This document shows positions 4,772 through 28,543 of a DNA stretch of 64,000 nucleotides, piece by piece (positions within the stretch are counted from its first letter, which is position 1; each line of letters begins with the position of its first letter). A program made the translations under genes and the position numbers. The stretch comes from an uncultured Planctomycetaceae bacterium (GTDB lineage Bacteria > Planctomycetota > Phycisphaerae > SM23-33). The stretch lies in NCBI GenBank assembly GCA_964472875.1, contig CAYYMD010000008.1, positions 2,414 to 66,413 of the forward strand. Direction: 5' to 3'. The notes beneath the pieces were generated by a model. It ran no database searches, was not told the DNA's origin, and worked only from the letters and a program-made list of their open reading frames with translations.

Positions 4772-6094
4772 ATGTCACAAAAAACGGTATCGCGAAGACA
4801 ACTGCTCAAGTCCGTAACCGCGGCGGGCGCGGCCGTGAGCGTACCGACCATCATCCCAACCCGGGCACTGGGCAAGTCAGGTTCTGCGGCTCCCTCCGAA
4901 CGCATAGTCATGGGCGCAATCGGCGTGGGAGGCAGAGGAAGCAGCGATTTGGGATGGCTGCTGCGACAGCATGATGTACAGATGGTTGCGGTTTGCGACG
5001 TGCGTAAAAACTGGCGGAGGGCCGCCAAAAAAATGGTGGACGGGCATTACGGCCGCAAGGATTGCGCTTCGTACCGTGATCTGCGGGTGATGCTTTCCGA
5101 GCGAACGGATATAGACGCCGTGCTCATAGCCACGGGCGACCGCTGGCACGCCCTGGCCTCTATCCTGGCGATGCGGGCCGGCAAGGATGTTTATTGCGAA
5201 AAGCCGTCCTGTCTGACCATCGCCGAGGGCAGGCGGGTTATGGAGACCGCCGGTCGCTATGGCCGCGTGTTTCAGACCGGCGCCCAGCGGCTGAGCGAAG
5301 CGAATCATGTCTTCGCCATTGAGATGGCGCGTTTGGGACGGCTGGGCGAGATTCACACCGTCTACGCCGACTGCCGCTATCGGGGTGGATACCGCCATGA
5401 CTGGTTGCCGGCGCAACCGGAACCGCCCCGGAAGGAACTGGACTGGGACATATGGCTCGGCCCCAGCCCCTGGCGGCCGTACAACAGCGGTTATCTCCGC
5501 GGCGGTAGCGGGTGGTACCAGTTCTACGATTTGGCGACGGATATCGCAATGTGGGGCGCGCATTCGGTCGCGCAGGCCCTGGCCGGACTGGATATGTCGG
5601 ATGTCTCTTTCATTGAGTTTGGATACGGCGGGCCGGGCAAGACGTTGAACACACGCCTTTCTAATGGAGTGAAGCTGGTGCTGTACCGCACGTCCGGCAA
5701 CGTCTGGAAGCCGTGCCGATACTGGCACGGCGCCTGCGGGGAGCGGTTCGACGGTTCGGAAGGATGGGCCGCGGCCGCCGACGGATACGCCAGGCCCGAT
5801 GTTTCCTCGCCTCAGATGCTGCGTCGGTACAAGCAGGTCCTGACGGAATACATGACCCGCACGCAGCGGCCGATGAACCACGTGCGCGATTTCCTCAACT
5901 GCGTCCGGTCGCGCCGCCTTACGGTGGCGAACCCCGAGGTTATGTATCACTCGATGAATATCTGCCTGGCTGCCGATATCTGCGGCCTGGTCCGGCGCGA
6001 CCTGAAGTTTGACTTTCGCAAGGGCGAATTCGTCGGCGATGCGGAGGCCAACCGTATGTTATCCCGCGCGGCGCGACAGCCGTGGATTTTGTGA
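4772..6094 (+). CDS. Gfo/Idh/MocA-family oxidoreductase with TAT signal (tandem paralog 1)
   Basis: TAT motif SRRQLLKSVTAAGAAVSVP and conserved block DAVLIATGDRWHALASILAMRAGKDVYCEKP shared with the downstream paralog. Confidence 0.85.
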   Translation: MSQKTVSRRQLLKSVTAAGAAVSVPTIIPTRALGKSGSAAPSERIVMGAIGVGGRGSSDLGWLLRQHDVQMVAVCDVRKNWRRAAKKMVDGHYGRKDCASYRDLRVMLSERTDIDAVLIATGDRWHALASILAMRAGKDVYCEKPSCLTIAEGRRVMETAGRYGRVFQTGAQRLSEANHVFAIEMARLGRLGEIHTVYADCRYRGGYRHDWLPAQPEPPRKELDWDIWLGPSPWRPYNSGYLRGGSGWYQFYDLATDIAMWGAHSVAQALAGLDMSDVSFIEFGYGGPGKTLNTRLSNGVKLVLYRTSGNVWKPCRYWHGACGERFDGSEGWAAAADGYARPDVSSPQMLRRYKQVLTEYMTRTQRPMNHVRDFLNCVRSRRLTVANPEVMYHSMNICLAADICGLVRRDLKFDFRKGEFVGDAEANRMLSRAARQPWIL

Positions 6095-17339: not shown

Positions 17340-18929
17340 TTATTTGCCCGGCCGCGACTTTTTATAGTCGTCCGGGTCTATGCCGAGTTTCTTTGTTTTG
17401 TAACGCAGTATTCGCGCGGTGGCGCCGAGTTCGCGTGCGGCGGCGGCCACGTTGCCGAATGTGCGCTTCAGCGCATCGACGATGATGTCGCGCTCGTAGA
17501 GCCCCACGCGTTCCTCGAGCGTGCCGGTGCCTGCGGTGTCGGAGAAATCTGACGTCTGAAGTGTGGGCGGCAGGTTGTGGCCGTGAATCACCCCGTCGGT
17601 GCTCAGCAGCACGGCCCGTTCGATGCAGTTCTCCAGTTCGCGAACGTTGCCCGGCCAGTGGTAAGCCATCATCATGTTGATGGCCGGCGTCGAGATGCGG
17701 CGGACGTCCTTGCCGAGTTTCTCCGCATAGCGCTCGACGAAATAATCCGCCAGCAGTAGAATGTCATCCTTCCGTTGGGTCAGGGTCGGCAGGTAAACAG
17801 GAAACACGTTGACGCGGTAATACAGGTCCTGGCGGAAGTCGCCGTCCGTGACGGCCTGCTCCAGGTCCTTGTTCGTGGCGCAGATTATCCGCACATCCGC
17901 ACGGCGTGCCTCGCTGGAGCCGACCCGCTCGTATTCCTTCTCCTGGATGACGCGCAGCAGTTTGACCTGCGTGGCGGGGGGAAATTCACCGATCTCGTCC
18001 AGGAACAGCGTGCCGCCGTCGGCCTGTTCTATTCGGCCAACGCGGTCTTTTACCGCCCCGGTGAACGCGCCTTCGACATGGCCGAACAGTTCGCTCTCCA
18101 AAAGCGATTCCTGAAGCGCCGCGCAGTTGACCTTTACAAACGGGCCCTTCGCTCGCGGGCTGGCGTAATGGATGGCGTGGGCGACCAGTTCCTTGCCGGT
18201 GCCCGTAGCCCCGCGGATGAGAACCGTGGTCTCCGAGGCCGCCACGCGGTAAATGGACCGGTACACTTCGCGCATGGCGTGTGAGTTACCGATTATGTTC
18301 TCCGGGCGGAAGCGGTCTTCCAGTTCCTCCCGCAGGCGGACGTTCTCGGCCTCCAGCGCTTCGCGCTCGGCGGCCAGTTGGCGACGAACCTCCACGTCGT
18401 TTGCGATCATGCTGGCCACGATGCTCAGTACCCGCAGGTCCTCTTCGAGCGAAACTGACTGGTCGAACACCCTGTCGGCCGAAAGCGCCCCGATTACTTC
18501 CTCCCCGCTGGTTATCGGCACGCAGACGAAACTTATCTCGTTCCGCGCCAGCTCTTTTCGCTTGTGGAGCTTGTCCAGGAACAGCGGCTCCTGAGAAATC
18601 TTCGGCACCACGGCCGGGCTGCCCGTGGCCACCACCCTGCCGGTGATGCCCTCGCCGCTGCGGTAACGGACCGCGCGCAGGTCTTCGTCGGAAAGATTGT
18701 GCGCGACTTCTATGAGCATTTCGTCGGCGCCCGGCTTCAGCAGAGATATCGTTCCCCGTGTCATGCCCAGGCGGTCGTGCAGAACGTCGAGGACCTCAGC
18801 CAGTACCTGACGCTGCCCTCCGCGAGAGGCCAGGATGCGGCTGATGGCGTACAGCGCCTCAAGTTCGGCCAGGTGCTTCTTCCTGCCTGCCTCGGCACGC
18901 CTGAAATCTTTACTCAAGGTATTATCCAT
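17340..18929 (-). CDS. Sigma54-dependent transcriptional activator with N-terminal GAF domain and C-terminal Fis-type HTH (NifA-type architecture; no receiver domain)
   Basis: GAF-like N-domain, then the AAA+ sigma54-interaction domain (Walker [15 protein letters not shown] loop [17 protein letters not shown]) and [26 protein letters not shown]. It is divergent from amtB. Confidence 0.9.
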
Positions 18930-18992
18930 GGCGATATTCCGAAATCAATAACATACTTATACCACATATTTGTAGTATCTCACAATAATATT

Positions 18993-19006
18993 CACAAAAT
19001 TGTAAG
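18993..19006 (+). promoter_or_regulatory. Candidate upstream activator sequence (palindromic CACAAwwTTGTAA) 91 bp upstream of the amtB sigma54 -24 element
   Basis: CACAAAATTGTAAG here versus CACAATATTGTAAT at 22162-22175 (12 of 14 identical). Both have an ACAA..TTGT dyad at the same distance (91 and 92 nt) from the respective -24 GG. Confidence 0.45.
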
Positions 19007-19082
19007 AATCATGCTAATCATCCATGAAGCCCATATTTCATAAATTACTGCTAATGAATGAATTATACAATATGATATTTTT

Positions 19083-19098
19083 TGGCACAGAATGTGCT
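19083..19098 (+). promoter_or_regulatory. Sigma54 (-24/-12) promoter of amtB-glnK-omp
   Basis: TGGCACAGAATGTGCT has the invariant GG (19084-85) and GC (19096-97) with the canonical 10-nt spacing, about 55 bp upstream of the proposed amtB start. Confidence 0.75.
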
Positions 19099-19154
19099 AT
19101 TAACGAATGTCGTGGTCGGGATGGGCCCGGCCGGGATATATGAAAGGATGTGAC

Positions 19155-20540
19155 ATGCGACGAAATACTCCTGAGGAAATTATGCCGCTTACCGGCTCAC
19201 GTAAATATGGGCGAAGATTTATCAAGCCGGCGCTTATGGCGGCCGCGGCCGTGTTGTTTGCAGCCCCGTCCCGCACATGGGCTTCCGAGTCGGCGGCCTC
19301 AGTCACCAGCGGACTGGACACTGTCTGGGTATTGATGGGCGCCTTTCTGGTGTTCTTTATGCAGGCGGGTTTCGGTATGGTCGAGGCCGGGTTTATTCGC
19401 GCTAAAAATGCCTGCAACATTCTGACCAAGAACTTTCTGGACTACTGCACCGCCAGTATAATGTTTTTCCTCGTCGGTTACGGATTCATGTTCGGGATCG
19501 GCAACGGTTTTATAGGCACCTCGGCGTTTGGCCTGTCCGATGCAGGCAGTTGTCCGGATAATCTGCCGCTTTGGGCGTTTTGGCTTTTTCAGGCCGCATT
19601 CTGCGGAGCGGCGGCGACCATTGTGGCCGGGGCCGTGGCCGAGCGCATGAAATTTTCCGCGTATCTGATGTACACGGTAGTGATATCCGCGTTGGTGTAT
19701 CCGATAATCGGCCACTGGGTATGGGGCGGCGGATGGCTTAGCGAGATGGGTTTCGCCGACTTCGCCGGTTCCACGGTGGTGCACGCCACCGGTGGATGGG
19801 CCGGATGTGTCGGTGCGTTACTGTTGGGACCGCGGATAGGCAAATTCAGGCCTGACCGCACAGCAAACGTCATCCCCGCCCACAACATCCCGTTGGCGTC
19901 CATCGGCGTGTTCATTCTGTGGTTCGGATGGTTTGGTTTTAATCCCGCATCGACGCTCAGTGTGGGTGACGGATCACTGATAGGCCTTGTGGCCATCAAT
20001 ACCAATCTCGCCGCTGCTGCCGGTGCCATAAGTGCTATGGTGACTGTGTGGCTGCGATATGGCAAGCCGGACCTGTCGATGACAATGAACGGCGCACTGG
20101 CCGGCCTGGTTGCCATTACAGCCCCGTGCGCGTTCGTGGCGCCGTGGGCGGCGATAATCATCGGACTGGTCGGCGGTGTGATAGTGGTCTTTGGCGTGGG
20201 GCTGCTGGACCGCATCGGCATAGACGACCCGGTCGGTGCGGTTCCTGTCCACGGCATGAACGGCATCTGGGGCACGCTTGCGGTGGGCCTGTTCGGCAGG
20301 GAGGCGCTTGGCCTGGCCGGGGAAGGTCTGCTGTTCGGCGGCGGGCGGCAGTTGGCGGTCCAGGCGCTGGGCACGTTTGTCTCGGCTGGCTTTGCGTTCC
20401 TGGCGATGGGAGCTGTGTTTATGCTGATAAAAGTAACCGTTGGCCTGCGCGTCAGCCGGGAAGAGGAACTGCGAGGTCTGGACATAGGCGAACACGGCAT
20501 GGAGGCCTACGGCGGCTTCCAGATATTCTCGAACGTTTAG
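19155..20540 (+). CDS. amtB: Ammonium transporter (Amt family) with signal peptide
   Basis: Amt signature regions (DFAGSTVVHATGGWAG, GPRIGKF, NGALAGLVAIT, 11 TM helices). The start is set at the ATG at 19155 (RBS AAGGA 7 nt upstream) because the ORF-track start at 19107 overlaps the predicted sigma54 transcription start. Confidence 0.9.
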   Translation: MRRNTPEEIMPLTGSRKYGRRFIKPALMAAAAVLFAAPSRTWASESAASVTSGLDTVWVLMGAFLVFFMQAGFGMVEAGFIRAKNACNILTKNFLDYCTASIMFFLVGYGFMFGIGNGFIGTSAFGLSDAGSCPDNLPLWAFWLFQAAFCGAAATIVAGAVAERMKFSAYLMYTVVISALVYPIIGHWVWGGGWLSEMGFADFAGSTVVHATGGWAGCVGALLLGPRIGKFRPDRTANVIPAHNIPLASIGVFILWFGWFGFNPASTLSVGDGSLIGLVAINTNLAAAAGAISAMVTVWLRYGKPDLSMTMNGALAGLVAITAPCAFVAPWAAIIIGLVGGVIVVFGVGLLDRIGIDDPVGAVPVHGMNGIWGTLAVGLFGREALGLAGEGLLFGGGRQLAVQALGTFVSAGFAFLAMGAVFMLIKVTVGLRVSREEELRGLDIGEHGMEAYGGFQIFSNV

Positions 20541-20583
20541 AACGTTTAACAAGCGTTAAACCCACAATAGAAGGAACAGAACC

Positions 20584-20925
20584 ATGAAACTTATAATCGC
20601 ATATATCCAGCCGGAGAAACTTAACGACGTAAAGCAGGCCCTCTATGCGGCCGAGGTGTACAAGTTATCGGTCACCAACGCCATGGGCTGCGGGCAGCAA
20701 AAGGGATACACCGAGACTTACCGCGGCGTTGAGATGGAAGTGAACCTGCTAAAGAAGGTGCGCCTGGAGATAGCAGTAAACCAGGATTTCGTCCAGCCGA
20801 CGATAGACGCTATAGTCAGCGGCGCCCGCACGGGTAACATAGGCGACGGGAAGATATTCGTCATTCCGCTGGAAAGGTGTTTCCGTATCCGCACCGGCGA
20901 AGACGGAAACGAGGCCATTGGTTAA
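20584..20925 (+). CDS. glnK: Nitrogen regulatory protein P-II
   Basis: 113 aa with [20 protein letters not shown] and the T-loop [12 protein letters not shown] with the conserved Tyr51. It lies immediately downstream of amtB. Confidence 0.95.
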
Positions 20926-20956
20926 CGAGCGAACAGCAATCTAAGGAGAAATTGAA

Positions 20957-21971
20957 AATGAAAAGTACGGACACACAAGCGACACTAAAAATTGCAGGGT
21001 TAGCCCTTATTCTGACGCTGCTGACGCCGATGGTCACCATCATGGCCGAGGAAACGGAAGACGGCGTAAAGACCTGGCTGGAATCCGCACCAGTTGCAGC
21101 TAAAGACACGGATGATTCGAAAATTCCTCTCGATGCCGAGCAAGAGCACGGCTATGAGAAACCGATTCCGCTTACATTCAGCATCGAATACACCCTGGTC
21201 AGCGATTACATATTCCGCGGCATCAACTTCAGCGAATACGCCGGGGAAGGCAGAGAGAAGCCGAATCACCAGATGGCGGCCGGCGTGGAGTATGACACCG
21301 GCGATTTCGGTGCGGTGGGTTTTTCGGCATGGTTCGAGTGGTATGCCGACCAGGAAGTTTTTACGCCCAACGAAAATACCCATCTTCAGGAAGTGGACTA
21401 CACGGTGTACTGGTCGTATGAGATACCGGACACTCCTGTGACAGTCGAACTGGGTTGGATAGCATATACCTTCCCGCCGCTGGCCGGCGACGCCCACGAC
21501 ACAAATGAGGTCTATGCGAAGGTGAGCGTGGACGACGGTTTCATCTTCGGCACCGACGAACCGGTGCTGAATCCGTACGTTTACTACGGGCTGGACGTGG
21601 ACGACGGGCAGCAGGGCTCGTGGCTGGAGTTCGGAGTCAGTCACGATTTCGTCCTGGCCGACTGCAAGGCGATGAAGTCCGCGCCAATCCTGAAGGATAT
21701 CACCGTCACGCCATCGGCTGTACTGGCTGTGGATAACAGATACCTGGACAAGTTCGACGTCCTCGGCGACGGCACCGAGCAGGAGGCCATGCGGCTGGCT
21801 TACATGCAGTACGGCCTGAACGTCAGTTACGATTTGTCTTCCGGCCTGAATATCCCGCCACAGTATGGAGCGATGACGCTGTCGGGCTTTGTGAACTTTA
21901 ACCAGGCGTTCCGCGACGACCTGCTCAACGATGAGATGTGGGGCGGCGTCTCGCTCGGGTATGAATGGTAA
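20957..21971 (+). CDS. Putative outer-membrane beta-barrel (porin-like) protein encoded inside the amtB-glnK operon
   Basis: Signal peptide MKSTDTQATLKIAGLALILTLLTPMVTIMA and alternating hydrophobic/aromatic beta-strand pattern. The C-terminus ends GGVSLGYEW, an aromatic residue typical of OM barrels. RBS AAGGAG upstream, and the gap from glnK is only 31 nt. Confidence 0.5.
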
Positions 21972-22000
21972 TCAAACGAAAGACAGCAGGATCCGCCGTA

Positions 22001-22039
22001 GTCCCGGCGCGTACTTGGCAAAGTAGTACGCGCCGGGAC
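22001..22039 (+). terminator. Long perfect hairpin (15-bp stem, 8-nt loop) downstream of the omp gene, nested in a second imperfect inverted repeat
   Basis: GTCCCGGCGCGTACT-tggcaaag-AGTACGCGCCGGGAC, flanked by GGATCCGCC...GGCGGATTCC. There is no T-tract. It is likely a transcript-end or stabilising structure. Confidence 0.5.
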
Positions 22040-22161
22040 ACGAGGCGGAACCAAGGCGGATTCCGTTCCTGCCGTTTTCAATAGTTAAAATAATATTAGC
22101 CCCAAAAATGAAGCAAATCATCTCTAATCCGACAATAATGTAACTATTATACCTATATAAT

Positions 22162-22175
22162 CACAATATTGTAAT
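22162..22175 (+). promoter_or_regulatory. Second copy of the candidate UAS (CACAATATTGTAAT) 92 bp upstream of the glnA sigma54 -24 element
   Basis: See 18993-19006. ACAATATTGT is a perfect 10-bp palindrome. Confidence 0.45.
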
Positions 22176-22252
22176 ATTATCGTGCACGCAACTTTTGGTA
22201 CGTGTTTTTATAACGCTCTATCATAAAGGCATTTGTAAACTTATAACCTTTC

Positions 22253-22268
22253 TGGCACGGCGTGTGCA
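22253..22268 (+). promoter_or_regulatory. Sigma54 (-24/-12) promoter of glnA
   Basis: TGGCACGGCGTGTGCA has GG (22254-55) and GC (22266-67) at canonical spacing, about 85 bp upstream of the glnA ATG. Confidence 0.75.
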
Positions 22269-22351
22269 ATATTAAATGGAAACAGGCCGGATCTATTGTA
22301 GGCAGGCCGGCGATAGTCTGAGAAATTGAAGATATGCAAAGGAGCATTACA

Positions 22352-23764
22352 ATGACACCAAAGGAATTCTTCGAGTATGCCGAGAAAAACGGCGCAAAAA
22401 TGGTCGACCTGAAATTCGTCGACATGCTGGGCACGTGGCAGCACTGTTCCCATCCCATCGACACGTGGGATGAGGAGACATTCACTGAAGGCATGGGCTT
22501 CGACGGTTCGTCCATTCGCGGTTGGCAGGACATCCACCAGTCCGACATGATCGCCATTCCCGACCCGGACACGGCGCAGATAGACCCGTTCTTCGCCCGT
22601 CCTACCGTCAGCGTTCTGGCCAACATCAAGGACCCCACCAACGGTGAGGATTACTCCCGCGACCCGCGCCATGTAACGCGCCGTGGTGAGCAGTACGTCA
22701 GGGAATCCGGCCTGGCCGACACGGTTTTCATCGGACCCGAGCCGGAGTTCTTCATTTTCGACGAGGTCCGCTATGAACAGAACCAGCACCGCGGATTCTA
22801 CGAGATTGACTCTGTCGAAGGCGCGTGGAACACCGCCCGGTTCGAAGAACCGAATCTCGGCTACAAGCCGTCGTTCAAGGGCGGGTACTTTCCGGTCTGC
22901 CCCACGGACACCTACCACGACCTCCGCGGCGAGATGGTGGAGGAACTTCAAAAGGTGGGCATCGTCATCGAGGCCCACCACCACGAGGTGGCCACGGCCG
23001 GGCAGTCCGAGATCGACATGAAGTTCGAGCCGCTGACGAAGATGGCAGACGCTTTCATGTGGTACAAGTACATCATACGCAACGTCGCTCGTCGCAACGG
23101 CAAGACCGTAACGTTCATGCCCAAGCCGGTCTTCGAAGACAACGGCAGCGGTATGCACACACACCTTTCGCTGTGGAAGGACGGACGGCCGTTGTTCGCC
23201 GGTGACAAGTACGCCGGCCTGAGCGAAATGGCGATACACGCCATAGGCGGAGTGCTCAAGCACGCCCCTGCGATACTGGCCTTCGCCGCGCCGACGACGA
23301 ATTCCTACCGACGCCTGGTTCCGGGCTTCGAGGCGCCGGTGAACTTGGTTTACTCGGCGCGGAACCGTTCTGCGGCGATTCGCATACCGATGTACTCGTC
23401 CAGCCCCAAGGCCAAGCGCATCGAGTTCCGTTGCCCGGATCCGACCGCCAACGGTTACCTGGCGTGGACGGCGATACTGATGGCCGCGGTCGACGGCATC
23501 AACAACAAGATAGACCCGGGCAAACCGCTGGACGTAGACATCTACGAGTTGTCACCGGAAGAACTGGCCAAGTATCCGCACACGCCGGAATCGCTGGCCG
23601 ACGCCATCGATGCGCTCGAGGCCGATTACGAATTCCTCACCGAAGGCGACGTCTTCAGCGAGGACCTTGTCGGTGCGTGGATAAACTGGAAGCGGGAAGA
23701 AGAACTCAAGCCCATGGCGCTTCGCCCGCACCCCCACGAGTTCCACATTTATTACGACAGTTAA
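22352..23764 (+). CDS. glnA: Glutamine synthetase type I
   Basis: GSI motifs throughout (N-terminal beta-grasp [27 protein letters not shown], catalytic [10 protein letters not shown]). The adenylylation-loop Tyr context [11 protein letters not shown] matches the E. coli NLYDLPPEE loop. The ATG at 22352 is preferred (RBS AAAGGAG 7 nt upstream). Confidence 0.95.
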
Positions 23765-23790
23765 ACCGACAGGCGAAAAATTCATCTAAG

Positions 23791-23826
23791 GCGCGGCGGC
23801 GTGAAAGCGCCGCCGCGCTAATATAA
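23791..23826 (+). terminator. Rho-independent terminator after glnA
   Basis: GCGCGGCGGCG-tgaaa-CGCCGCCGCGC is followed by TAATATAAA (A/T-rich tail). Confidence 0.6.

Positions 23827-23989: not shown

Positions 23990-28535
<4,546 letters not shown>

Positions 28536-28543
<8 letters not shown>

Follow-up and report, generated by a model that had tools for sequence, protein, structure and literature searches.

The gene lying between glnK and glnA in the window (the stretch of 64,000 nucleotides analysed here) encodes a predicted outer-membrane beta-barrel of twelve strands with a very acidic composition. The protein is probably a channel that is produced from a sigma-54-dependent amtB–glnK–barrel operon and admits ammonium under nitrogen limitation, and we regard it as a good candidate to mediate ammonium uptake at the level of the outer membrane. 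In silico, we observe the gene itself, a secretion signal, a barrel fold, homology to a superfamily of putative porins, the anatomy of the operon, conserved linkage to nitrogen genes, and an architecture of promoters and upstream sites. The support for a nutrient-specific porin paired with AmtB is of two kinds, genomic context and charge. The passage of ammonium across the outer membrane at low concentration has hardly been studied, and the barrel family is a compact and well-defined candidate, with its strong AmtB pairing in two PVC lineages, its architecture of promoter, activator and sites, and its few invariant acidic residues. It also provides a first functional handle on an unannotated family of Planctomycetota outer-membrane proteins and on the uncharacterised Gcw_chp/TorF superfamily.

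Organization of the nitrogen cluster

The barrel gene follows amtB and glnK and is itself followed by glnA and gltB (Table 1). The divergently oriented gene upstream of amtB codes for a sigma-54 enhancer-binding protein, the presumed activator of both the amtB–glnK–barrel operon and glnA. Although the longest open reading frame of amtB starts at 19107, the start given in Table 1 (19182) is likely to be the true one; it is the start placed by an independent gene call on a public contig of 4.8 kb. The same call has AmtB at 452 aa and the P-II protein at 113 aa, followed by a product identical to the 337-aa protein described here. The sequence-only reading had begun the barrel gene at 20957; the reading frame is real, but its ATG lies one base downstream. 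Similarly, the short gap after glnK and the strong ribosome-binding site described in that reading are present, but the gap measures 32 nt and not 31.

Table 1. Coordinates of the barrel gene, its neighbours and the associated regulatory elements in the window.
Feature	Position	Strand	Remarks
Sigma-54 enhancer-binding protein gene (GAF, AAA+, Fis-type HTH)	17340–18929	-	Pfam Sigma54_activat 2.5e-73, GAF 1.3e-14, HTH_8 1.9e-7
Palindromes ACATATTTGT (18964–18973) and ACAAAATTGT (18994–19003)	18964–19003	+	10 bp each; about 120 and 90 nt 5' of the -24 element
Sigma-54 -24/-12 element before amtB, TGGCACAGAATGTGCT	19083–19098	+	one mismatch to TGGCAC-N5-TTGCW
amtB, ammonium transporter	19182–20540	+	Pfam Ammonium_transp 4.8e-131; independent gene call, 452 aa
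glnK, P-II nitrogen regulatory protein	20584–20925	+	Pfam P-II 4.3e-25
glnK–barrel spacer, 32 nt	20926–20957	+	AAGGAG ribosome-binding site at 20944–20949, 8 nt 5' of the ATG; no hairpin or promoter
Barrel gene, 337 aa	20958–21971	+	ATG at 20958; stop codon ends at 21971
Predicted layout of the barrel protein	20958–21971	+	signal peptide, residues 1–29; disordered acidic linker with TWL motif, about 30–66; 12-stranded beta-barrel, 67–337; GYEW end
Strong compound hairpin after the barrel stop codon	21980–22078	+	UUUU end at 22075–22078; perfect 15-bp GC-rich stem at 22001–22039
Palindromes ACAATAATGT (22132–22141) and ACAATATTGT (22163–22172)	22132–22172	+	about 120 and 90 nt 5' of the glnA sigma-54 element
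Separate glnA sigma-54 -24/-12 element, TGGCACGGCGTGTGCA	22253–22268	+	one mismatch
glnA	22334–23764	+	Pfam/ORF list
gltB	23990–28543	+	Pfam/ORF list

The sequence upstream of amtB carries the marks of a sigma-54 nitrogen operon, namely TGGCAC-N5-TGC at 19083, an adjacent activator gene and tandem upstream palindromes. The sequence-only reading had placed the barrel gene, as a probable third gene, in the same transcript as amtB and glnK, unless a promoter or terminator of its own separated it from glnK, and none does. The spacer is unfolded (fold energy -5.4 kcal/mol, z = +0.97), and a consensus scan of 20540–20958 for promoters of the sigma-70 type found neither a promoter nor a terminator on the + strand. 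No sigma-54 element was present in the interval separating the barrel gene from the glnK or amtB gene ahead of it, either here or at any of the 28 related loci with such an order. From the sequence, we infer that the three genes are co-transcribed, the barrel gene being the third of a sigma-54-dependent operon. The hairpin after the barrel gene is the probable end of this operon. Its RNA fold reaches -58.9 kcal/mol (z = -6.5), and none of 200 shuffled sequences was equally stable. With a loop of 9 nt and a short U-run, it escaped a simple scan for terminators on the + strand.

Sigma-54-like matches at 5723, 7060 and 26061, the last inside gltB, lie within long open reading frames and were treated as chance occurrences. 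An Rfam scan of 18800–22500 gave no credible family, the single match being below threshold (E 0.06) and inside amtB.

Conserved linkage to amtB and glnK in related genomes

A scan of GTDB species genomes produced 78 loci, all but one titled as MAGs of Phycisphaerae or other Planctomycetota. Synteny with amtB and glnK, proposed as a check in the sequence-only reading, recurs in many of them: amtB and/or glnK lay inside the fetched flanks at 34 loci, nearly always adjacent to the barrel gene and on the same strand, while at 8 further loci the barrel gene was accompanied by the activator only, being located directly downstream of its divergent homologue. In most related loci the activator homologue is divergent from the cluster. 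The gene had also been described as inserted between glnK and glnA, a view that has to be abandoned, for it is a regular member of the nitrogen cluster across related genomes. At the closest locus (L054), where the barrel protein is 74% identical, the whole arrangement is reproduced, with the activator followed by amtB–glnK–barrel–glnA–gltB. Elsewhere the order varies and includes amtB–glnK–barrel(–glnA), barrel–amtB–glnK(–glnA), glnK–barrel–amtB and amtB–barrel. The linkage thus outlasts rearrangement of gene order, which argues for a functional tie between the barrel and its neighbours.

A comparable arrangement is found in Kiritimatiellae, where the genes of two abundant proteins, P0268 and P0280, stand in P-II–amtB–barrel–nadE clusters beside GS-III and GOGAT genes. 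No nitrogen genes were found around three more distant Gcw_chp relatives (P0244, P0295 and P0293), so that the linkage does not extend to the superfamily as a whole. Within the family, a neighbour-joining tree has linked copies spread over most of the branches, together with one clade of 15 copies wholly unlinked to amtB and glnK. About 45% of the family copies are located away from nitrogen genes, and these retain nearly all of the conserved residues; the conserved chemistry is therefore shared by linked and unlinked copies alike. A Pfam scan of 90 proteins flanking the loci without amtB or glnK, activator-only loci included, revealed no other recurrent neighbour, as the most frequent domains were generic signalling domains present in at most 4 of the 90. 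A WL motif behind the signal peptide is likewise uncorrelated with amtB linkage, being present in 17 of 34 linked and 22 of 37 unlinked copies.

Of 42 related nitrogen-cluster loci, 37 have a sigma-54 element ahead of the leading gene of the cluster, the background density of such elements being 0.074 per kb per strand. The barrel gene itself leads the cluster in eight of these 37 loci; a ninth barrel-first locus (L034) has only a weaker sigma-54 match. An ACAW-N2-WTGT motif accompanies 49 of 73 sigma-54-like sites of the related loci, with positions peaking between -120 and -80 and a background of 0.17 per kb. ACA-N4-TGT palindromes stand at fixed distances of about -90 and -120 before both promoters of the window and also in related loci, and on this sequence evidence they are good candidates for binding sites of the divergent activator. 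Some unlinked paralogues are likewise accompanied by such palindromes, and 10 of 35 unlinked paralogues have a sigma-54 site of their own, as compared with about 1.5 expected by chance.

These observations bear on the possibility that the barrel gene is transcribed independently and has no functional connection with amtB and glnK, its position being an accident of one lineage. The large share of unlinked copies could be taken in this sense, and the sigma-70 consensus scan covers one type of promoter only. Nevertheless, the spacer has neither promoter nor hairpin, the linkage persists at 34 loci despite three different gene orders and is found again in a second lineage of phylum rank, and barrel-first loci carry the sigma-54 promoter and the palindromes at the barrel gene itself. 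An accidental adjacency is accordingly highly improbable.

The encoded protein as a predicted acidic outer-membrane barrel

The N-terminus reads as a Sec-type signal peptide, judging by K2 and K11, a 19-residue hydrophobic core (IAGLALILTLLTPMVTIMA) and the acidic residues that follow; a lipobox cysteine is absent. The C-terminal residues V-S-L-G-Y-E-W place hydrophobic or aromatic side chains at -1, -3, -5 and -7, an alternation resembling a beta-signal. An AlphaFold2 model computed from a 35-sequence family alignment (mean pLDDT 81.9, pTM 0.77) comprises a helix at residues 5–22, within the signal peptide, a disordered stretch at 27–56 and twelve long strands between residues 72 and 336. The barrel blocks are mostly above pLDDT 90, and hydrophobicity alternates along the strands as expected for transmembrane segments. 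In a Foldseek search of the PDB the matches were overwhelmingly outer-membrane barrels, the best being OmpG, FapF, NanC and KdgM (E 1e-7 to 1e-4, probability 1.00, target-normalised TM-score 0.49–0.64). The sequence-only reading had predicted the signal peptide, the C-terminal aromatic residue and the barrel, and had named a non-barrel fold as the outcome that would contradict it; on all three points the present data agree with it. Together, a Sec signal peptide as judged from sequence, an even number (12) of amphipathic strands and a C-terminal beta-signal are what would be expected of an outer-membrane beta-barrel channel.

The mature protein has a pI of 4.05, with 55 acidic (D+E) and 15 basic (K+R) residues, while neighbouring proteins range from pI 5 to 9. 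Among strand residues predicted to face the lumen, 15 are acidic and 2 basic, the side being assigned by strand parity and hydrophobicity and not by model coordinates; these positions are polar and acidic rather than hydrophobic. The most conserved segment is the beta1–beta2 loop, SDYIFRGINFSEYAGEGREKP (residues 82–102), with the NHQ that follows it. The 35-sequence alignment shows no variation at D83, R87, G88, N90, S92, E93, E97, E100, N103, H104 and Q105, and conserved acidic positions include D83, E93, E97, E100, E145, D147, D213, D292 and D325. This loop could be a plug instead of a filter.

A classical trimeric general porin of 16 strands (OmpF/OmpC/PhoE type) was considered and rejected, as the model has 12 strands, Pfam porin families are unmatched, and OmpF, OmpU and Omp32 rank low among the Foldseek matches (TM-scores of about 0.3).

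A distant branch of the Gcw_chp superfamily

A database search retrieved 261 homologues at E ≤ 1e-3, nearly all unnamed or annotated as hypothetical; wherever a source is named, it is a MAG of Phycisphaerae or Planctomycetota. With a profile search of 1.84 billion representatives, 554 clusters were obtained at E ≤ 1e-3 and 85 at E ≤ 1e-30. Going by these sequence matches, the barrel gene is more than a chance reading frame, and its product is a member of an unannotated family that is nearly confined to genomes of Phycisphaerae and other Planctomycetota.

Direct comparison of the query with described families gives scores below their cut-offs. Pfam PF09694 (Gcw_chp) matches residues 71–197 only, with 20.9 bits (E 3.9e-4) against a gathering threshold of 24 bits, and NCBIfam TIGR02001 ('TorF family putative porin') reaches 13.1 bits (E 0.051) against a cut-off of 47.15, so that the query falls outside both families as they are strictly defined. 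Gcw_chp is nonetheless detected at E < 0.01 in 24 of 35 family members, with a best value of 1.4e-6. A tail match of the family profile, the Kiritimatiellae protein P0258, scores 32 bits on Gcw_chp, which is above the 24-bit cut-off. When the family alignment (A1) was compared by hhalign with an alignment of Kiritimatiellae relatives (A3) that includes P0258, most of the others having recorded PF09694 hits, the two aligned over 223 columns with a probability of 99.9% and E 7.8e-32, the identity in these columns being about 29%. The first-strand motif SDYxxRG and the C-terminal aromatic residue are both present; D83, Y84, R87 and G88 vary little or not at all in A1 and align with the S-D-Y-x-W/F-R-G of Kiritimatiellae Gcw_chp proteins. 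A remote Kiritimatiellae homologue is likewise predicted to form a barrel, of about 12 strands. Judged from these alignments, homology to the Gcw_chp superfamily is clear even though strict membership fails, and the family is best described as a distant Phycisphaerae branch of the Gcw_chp/'TorF family putative porin' superfamily.

The branch has in common with Gcw_chp/TIGR02001 proteins a signal peptide, a barrel of about 250–270 residues, an SDY(I/V/M)(F/W)RG first strand and a C-terminal GG...(F/W). It differs from the Kiritimatiellae and other Gcw_chp proteins by a 7-residue acidic insertion, EYAGEGR, in the beta1–beta2 loop and by longer loops, as seen with hhalign, and from Gcw_chp/TorF proteins by a disordered N-terminal linker with a WL motif, which many of its members have. 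Its genomic partner also differs: the TorF gene is found beside TMAO reductase genes in Shewanella, whereas the Phycisphaerae branch is associated with amtB and glnK under predicted sigma-54 control. A PDB sequence search with the family profile returned nothing at E ≤ 1, and there is no solved structure among the relatives. Our literature search found no paper mentioning Gcw_chp, TIGR02001 or PF09694, and a tblastn search of a plasmid collection with a Gcw_chp relative gave no match. A Kiritimatiellae profile search directed at proteobacterial TorF-family proteins recovered 36 proteins, none of them named TorF.

Some of these relationships might hint at a protein that is not a channel. It could be a structural or scaffolding barrel of the MipA/OmpV kind, or a barrel for lipids or hydrophobic compounds, with an occluded lumen and a role in remodelling the envelope under nitrogen limitation. 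P0258 has a Pfam MipA match besides that to Gcw_chp, a weak Phenol_MetA_deg match occurs in one family member, the 12-stranded COG4313 barrel is among the Foldseek matches, and the long, highly conserved beta1–beta2 loop could close the barrel. On the other hand, the query matches neither MipA nor Phenol_MetA_deg, its best structural counterparts OmpG, NanC and KdgM are open channels, and its predicted lumen-facing positions are not hydrophobic. A scaffold would also be hard to reconcile with a tight, rearrangement-resistant linkage to a transporter of the ion-channel type. Such a role is improbable in our view.

MipA/OmpV (PF06629) was also considered as a family assignment and rejected: the query is unmatched at E ≤ 1, and P0258, a remote relative, is the only one to match, with 26.5 bits.

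A possible route for ammonium across the outer membrane

From the features described above, we infer that the pore is open and selective for cations, that its substrate is ammonium and that nitrogen limitation induces its synthesis. Under scarcity of fixed nitrogen, the GAF–AAA+–HTH activator would turn on the amtB–glnK–barrel operon from the tandem ACA-N4-TGT sites. The monomer-sized barrel, made together with AmtB and GlnK, would then insert into the outer membrane, where its predicted negative lumen and the invariant acidic beta1–beta2 loop may favour small cations. The flux of NH4+ into the periplasm could thereby be raised, fast enough for uptake by AmtB at low external concentration. Uncharged NH3 crosses membranes, and NH4+ normally passes general porins; that a dedicated channel is needed is therefore an assumption.

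Alternatively, the protein may be a nitrogen-starvation channel of broad or different specificity, for urea, methylamines, amino acids or small peptides, which is found with amtB only by way of a common scavenging regulon. The cluster also holds glnA and gltB, and co-regulation alone names no substrate. The same conserved residues occur in the unlinked paralogues, and the position of the namesake TorF gene would point to small nitrogen-containing solutes in general. Moreover, the amtB-linked porin of Formosa B has been read as a peptide channel (PMC6246565). Yet AmtB is the sole recurrent transporter neighbour, urea, amino-acid and peptide transporters recurring beside no copy; the pairing with amtB recurs in Kiritimatiellae at about 29% identity; and the extremely acidic interior of a 12-stranded barrel suits small cations better than peptides. 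A pore of broader or different specificity is the main rival of the ammonium channel. We consider it unlikely, while a scaffold role and an accidental adjacency are much less likely still. Were the protein a general nitrogen-scavenging pore, its gene would still be useful as a marker of nitrogen limitation in metagenomes and metatranscriptomes of Phycisphaerae.

It is tempting to extend the ammonium-channel reading further, although in this form we can offer it only tentatively and with some doubt. The family might represent the first dedicated ammonium-selective outer-membrane channels, in which the acidic beta1–beta2 loop (S-E-x-x-G-E-G-R-E...N-H-Q) would serve as the site of cation recruitment and selectivity. 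Together with AmtB and GlnK, the barrel would form a two-membrane pathway under sigma-54 control, and this pairing would be an ancestral trait within part of the PVC superphylum, namely Phycisphaerae and Kiritimatiellae. This would imply that the outer membrane, and not only the inner one, limits the acquisition of ammonium in these bacteria.

Relation to known porins

The concept of an amtB-linked, nitrogen-regulated porin is already known. In Formosa B (Bacteroidetes), the putative porin FORMB_11920 shares an operon with an ammonium transporter and is clustered with genes for P-II and glutamate synthase (Unfried et al. 2018, PMC6246565). It was massively co-induced with nitrogen genes, accounting for up to 10% of protein abundance, and its authors proposed uptake of peptides (PMC6246565). 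FORMB_11920 resembles the present barrel in being an outer-membrane porin encoded together with an ammonium transporter in one operon. It belongs, however, to another phylum, its regulation was not described as sigma-54-dependent, and the likeness considered here is one of gene context. What is new here is an unannotated, very acidic 12-stranded branch of Gcw_chp proteins, its systematic pairing with amtB–glnK in two PVC lineages, and a defined, though predicted, control by sigma-54, activator and palindromes.

Other porins have been connected with nitrogen supply. Genetic data on PorA (EQU24_19165) of Methylotuvimicrobium buryatense 5GB1C, given in a preprint, show that it speeds the uptake of total ammonia nitrogen and aids growth at 0.2 mM ammonium, and its authors state there that no specific ammonium porin has been characterised (bioRxiv 10.1101/2025.01.28.635327). 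With 402 aa and 16 strands, PorA has the size of a classical porin, whereas the present barrel, known from sequence and model, has 12 strands; nor do the passages of the preprint considered here describe PorA as linked to amtB. The BBP2 porin of Kuenenia is up-regulated at ammonium limitation (PMC7438415), OmpU of Pelagibacter rises under nitrogen limitation (PMC3870248), and the NtrC regulon of Methylomonas includes a porin (PMC12799797).

The closest structural counterparts, OmpG, NanC/KdgM and FapF, are small monomeric barrels of 12–14 strands like the one predicted here, but sequence identity to them is only 9–15% and homology at the sequence level was not found. Their substrates differ as well, and include sugars, sialic acid, oligogalacturonate and amyloid subunits. 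NanC and KdgM, whose substrates are acidic, have a basic lining, opposite in charge to that predicted for the present barrel.

Control of the amtB and glnA promoters

Upstream of both sigma-54 elements of the nitrogen cluster lie tandem 10-bp palindromes of the form ACAW-N2-WTGT, and the same motif recurs at matching distances from 49 of the 73 sigma-54-like sites examined in related Phycisphaerae loci (L001-L073). As far as could be found, it has not been described earlier; it is the probable binding motif of the divergently transcribed activator. Some barrel paralogues without nitrogen-gene neighbours (L002, L019, L040, L065 and L074) are likewise preceded by their own sigma-54 element and an upstream palindrome; the same activator probably regulates them in trans.

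The activator carries a GAF sensor domain and thus has a NifA-like architecture, whereas NtrC-type proteins have a receiver domain in that place. Because the receiver domain is lacking and no ntrB-like kinase gene adjoins the activator gene in the window, nitrogen control in these Planctomycetota may bypass the NtrBC phosphorelay.

The longest amtB reading frame, which begins only 9 nt past the sigma-54 element, probably reaches too far at its 5′ end; an independent gene call backs a start at 19182, which would leave a leader of about 70 nt. Further downstream in the window, the AT-rich spacer between glnA and gltB showed no sigma-54 element, and gltB may therefore use a promoter of another type.

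Features of the nitrogen cluster and the barrel gene
Feature	Window position	Strand	Remark
Activator gene	17340-18929	-	beside nitrogen cluster
Tandem palindromes, amtB side	18964-19003		about 120 and 90 nt upstream of the -24 element
Doubtful 5′ stretch of amtB	19107-19181		
Acidic linker of barrel protein	21045-21155		disordered; residues 30-66, between signal peptide and barrel
Tandem palindromes, glnA side	22132-22172		about 120 and 90 nt upstream of the -24 element
GC-rich hairpin	23790-23826		GGCGCGGCGGCG...CGCCGCCGCGC; directly 3′ of glnA

The barrel gene in related genomes

In about half of the family members (family alignment A1), the linker of the barrel protein contains the short conserved motif x-W-L-x-A, which lies a few residues past the predicted cleavage site; its presence did not correlate with linkage to amtB. 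In many genomes the cluster contains two amtB(-glnK) units, tandem barrel paralogues or both (L014, L015, L016, L020, L022, L025, L035, L039, L042, L048, L056 and L073). When there are two copies of amtB, the one that precedes the barrel gene is usually the less similar to the AmtB of the window (about 53-57% identity, versus 64-75% for the other copy).

A conserved cluster of genes for P-II, AmtB, a Gcw_chp barrel and glutamine-dependent NAD synthetase (nadE), adjoining GS-III and GOGAT genes, is found in Kiritimatiellae metagenome contigs (L079-L084), many of them from human and animal gut samples; the barrel-amtB pairing therefore extends beyond Planctomycetota.
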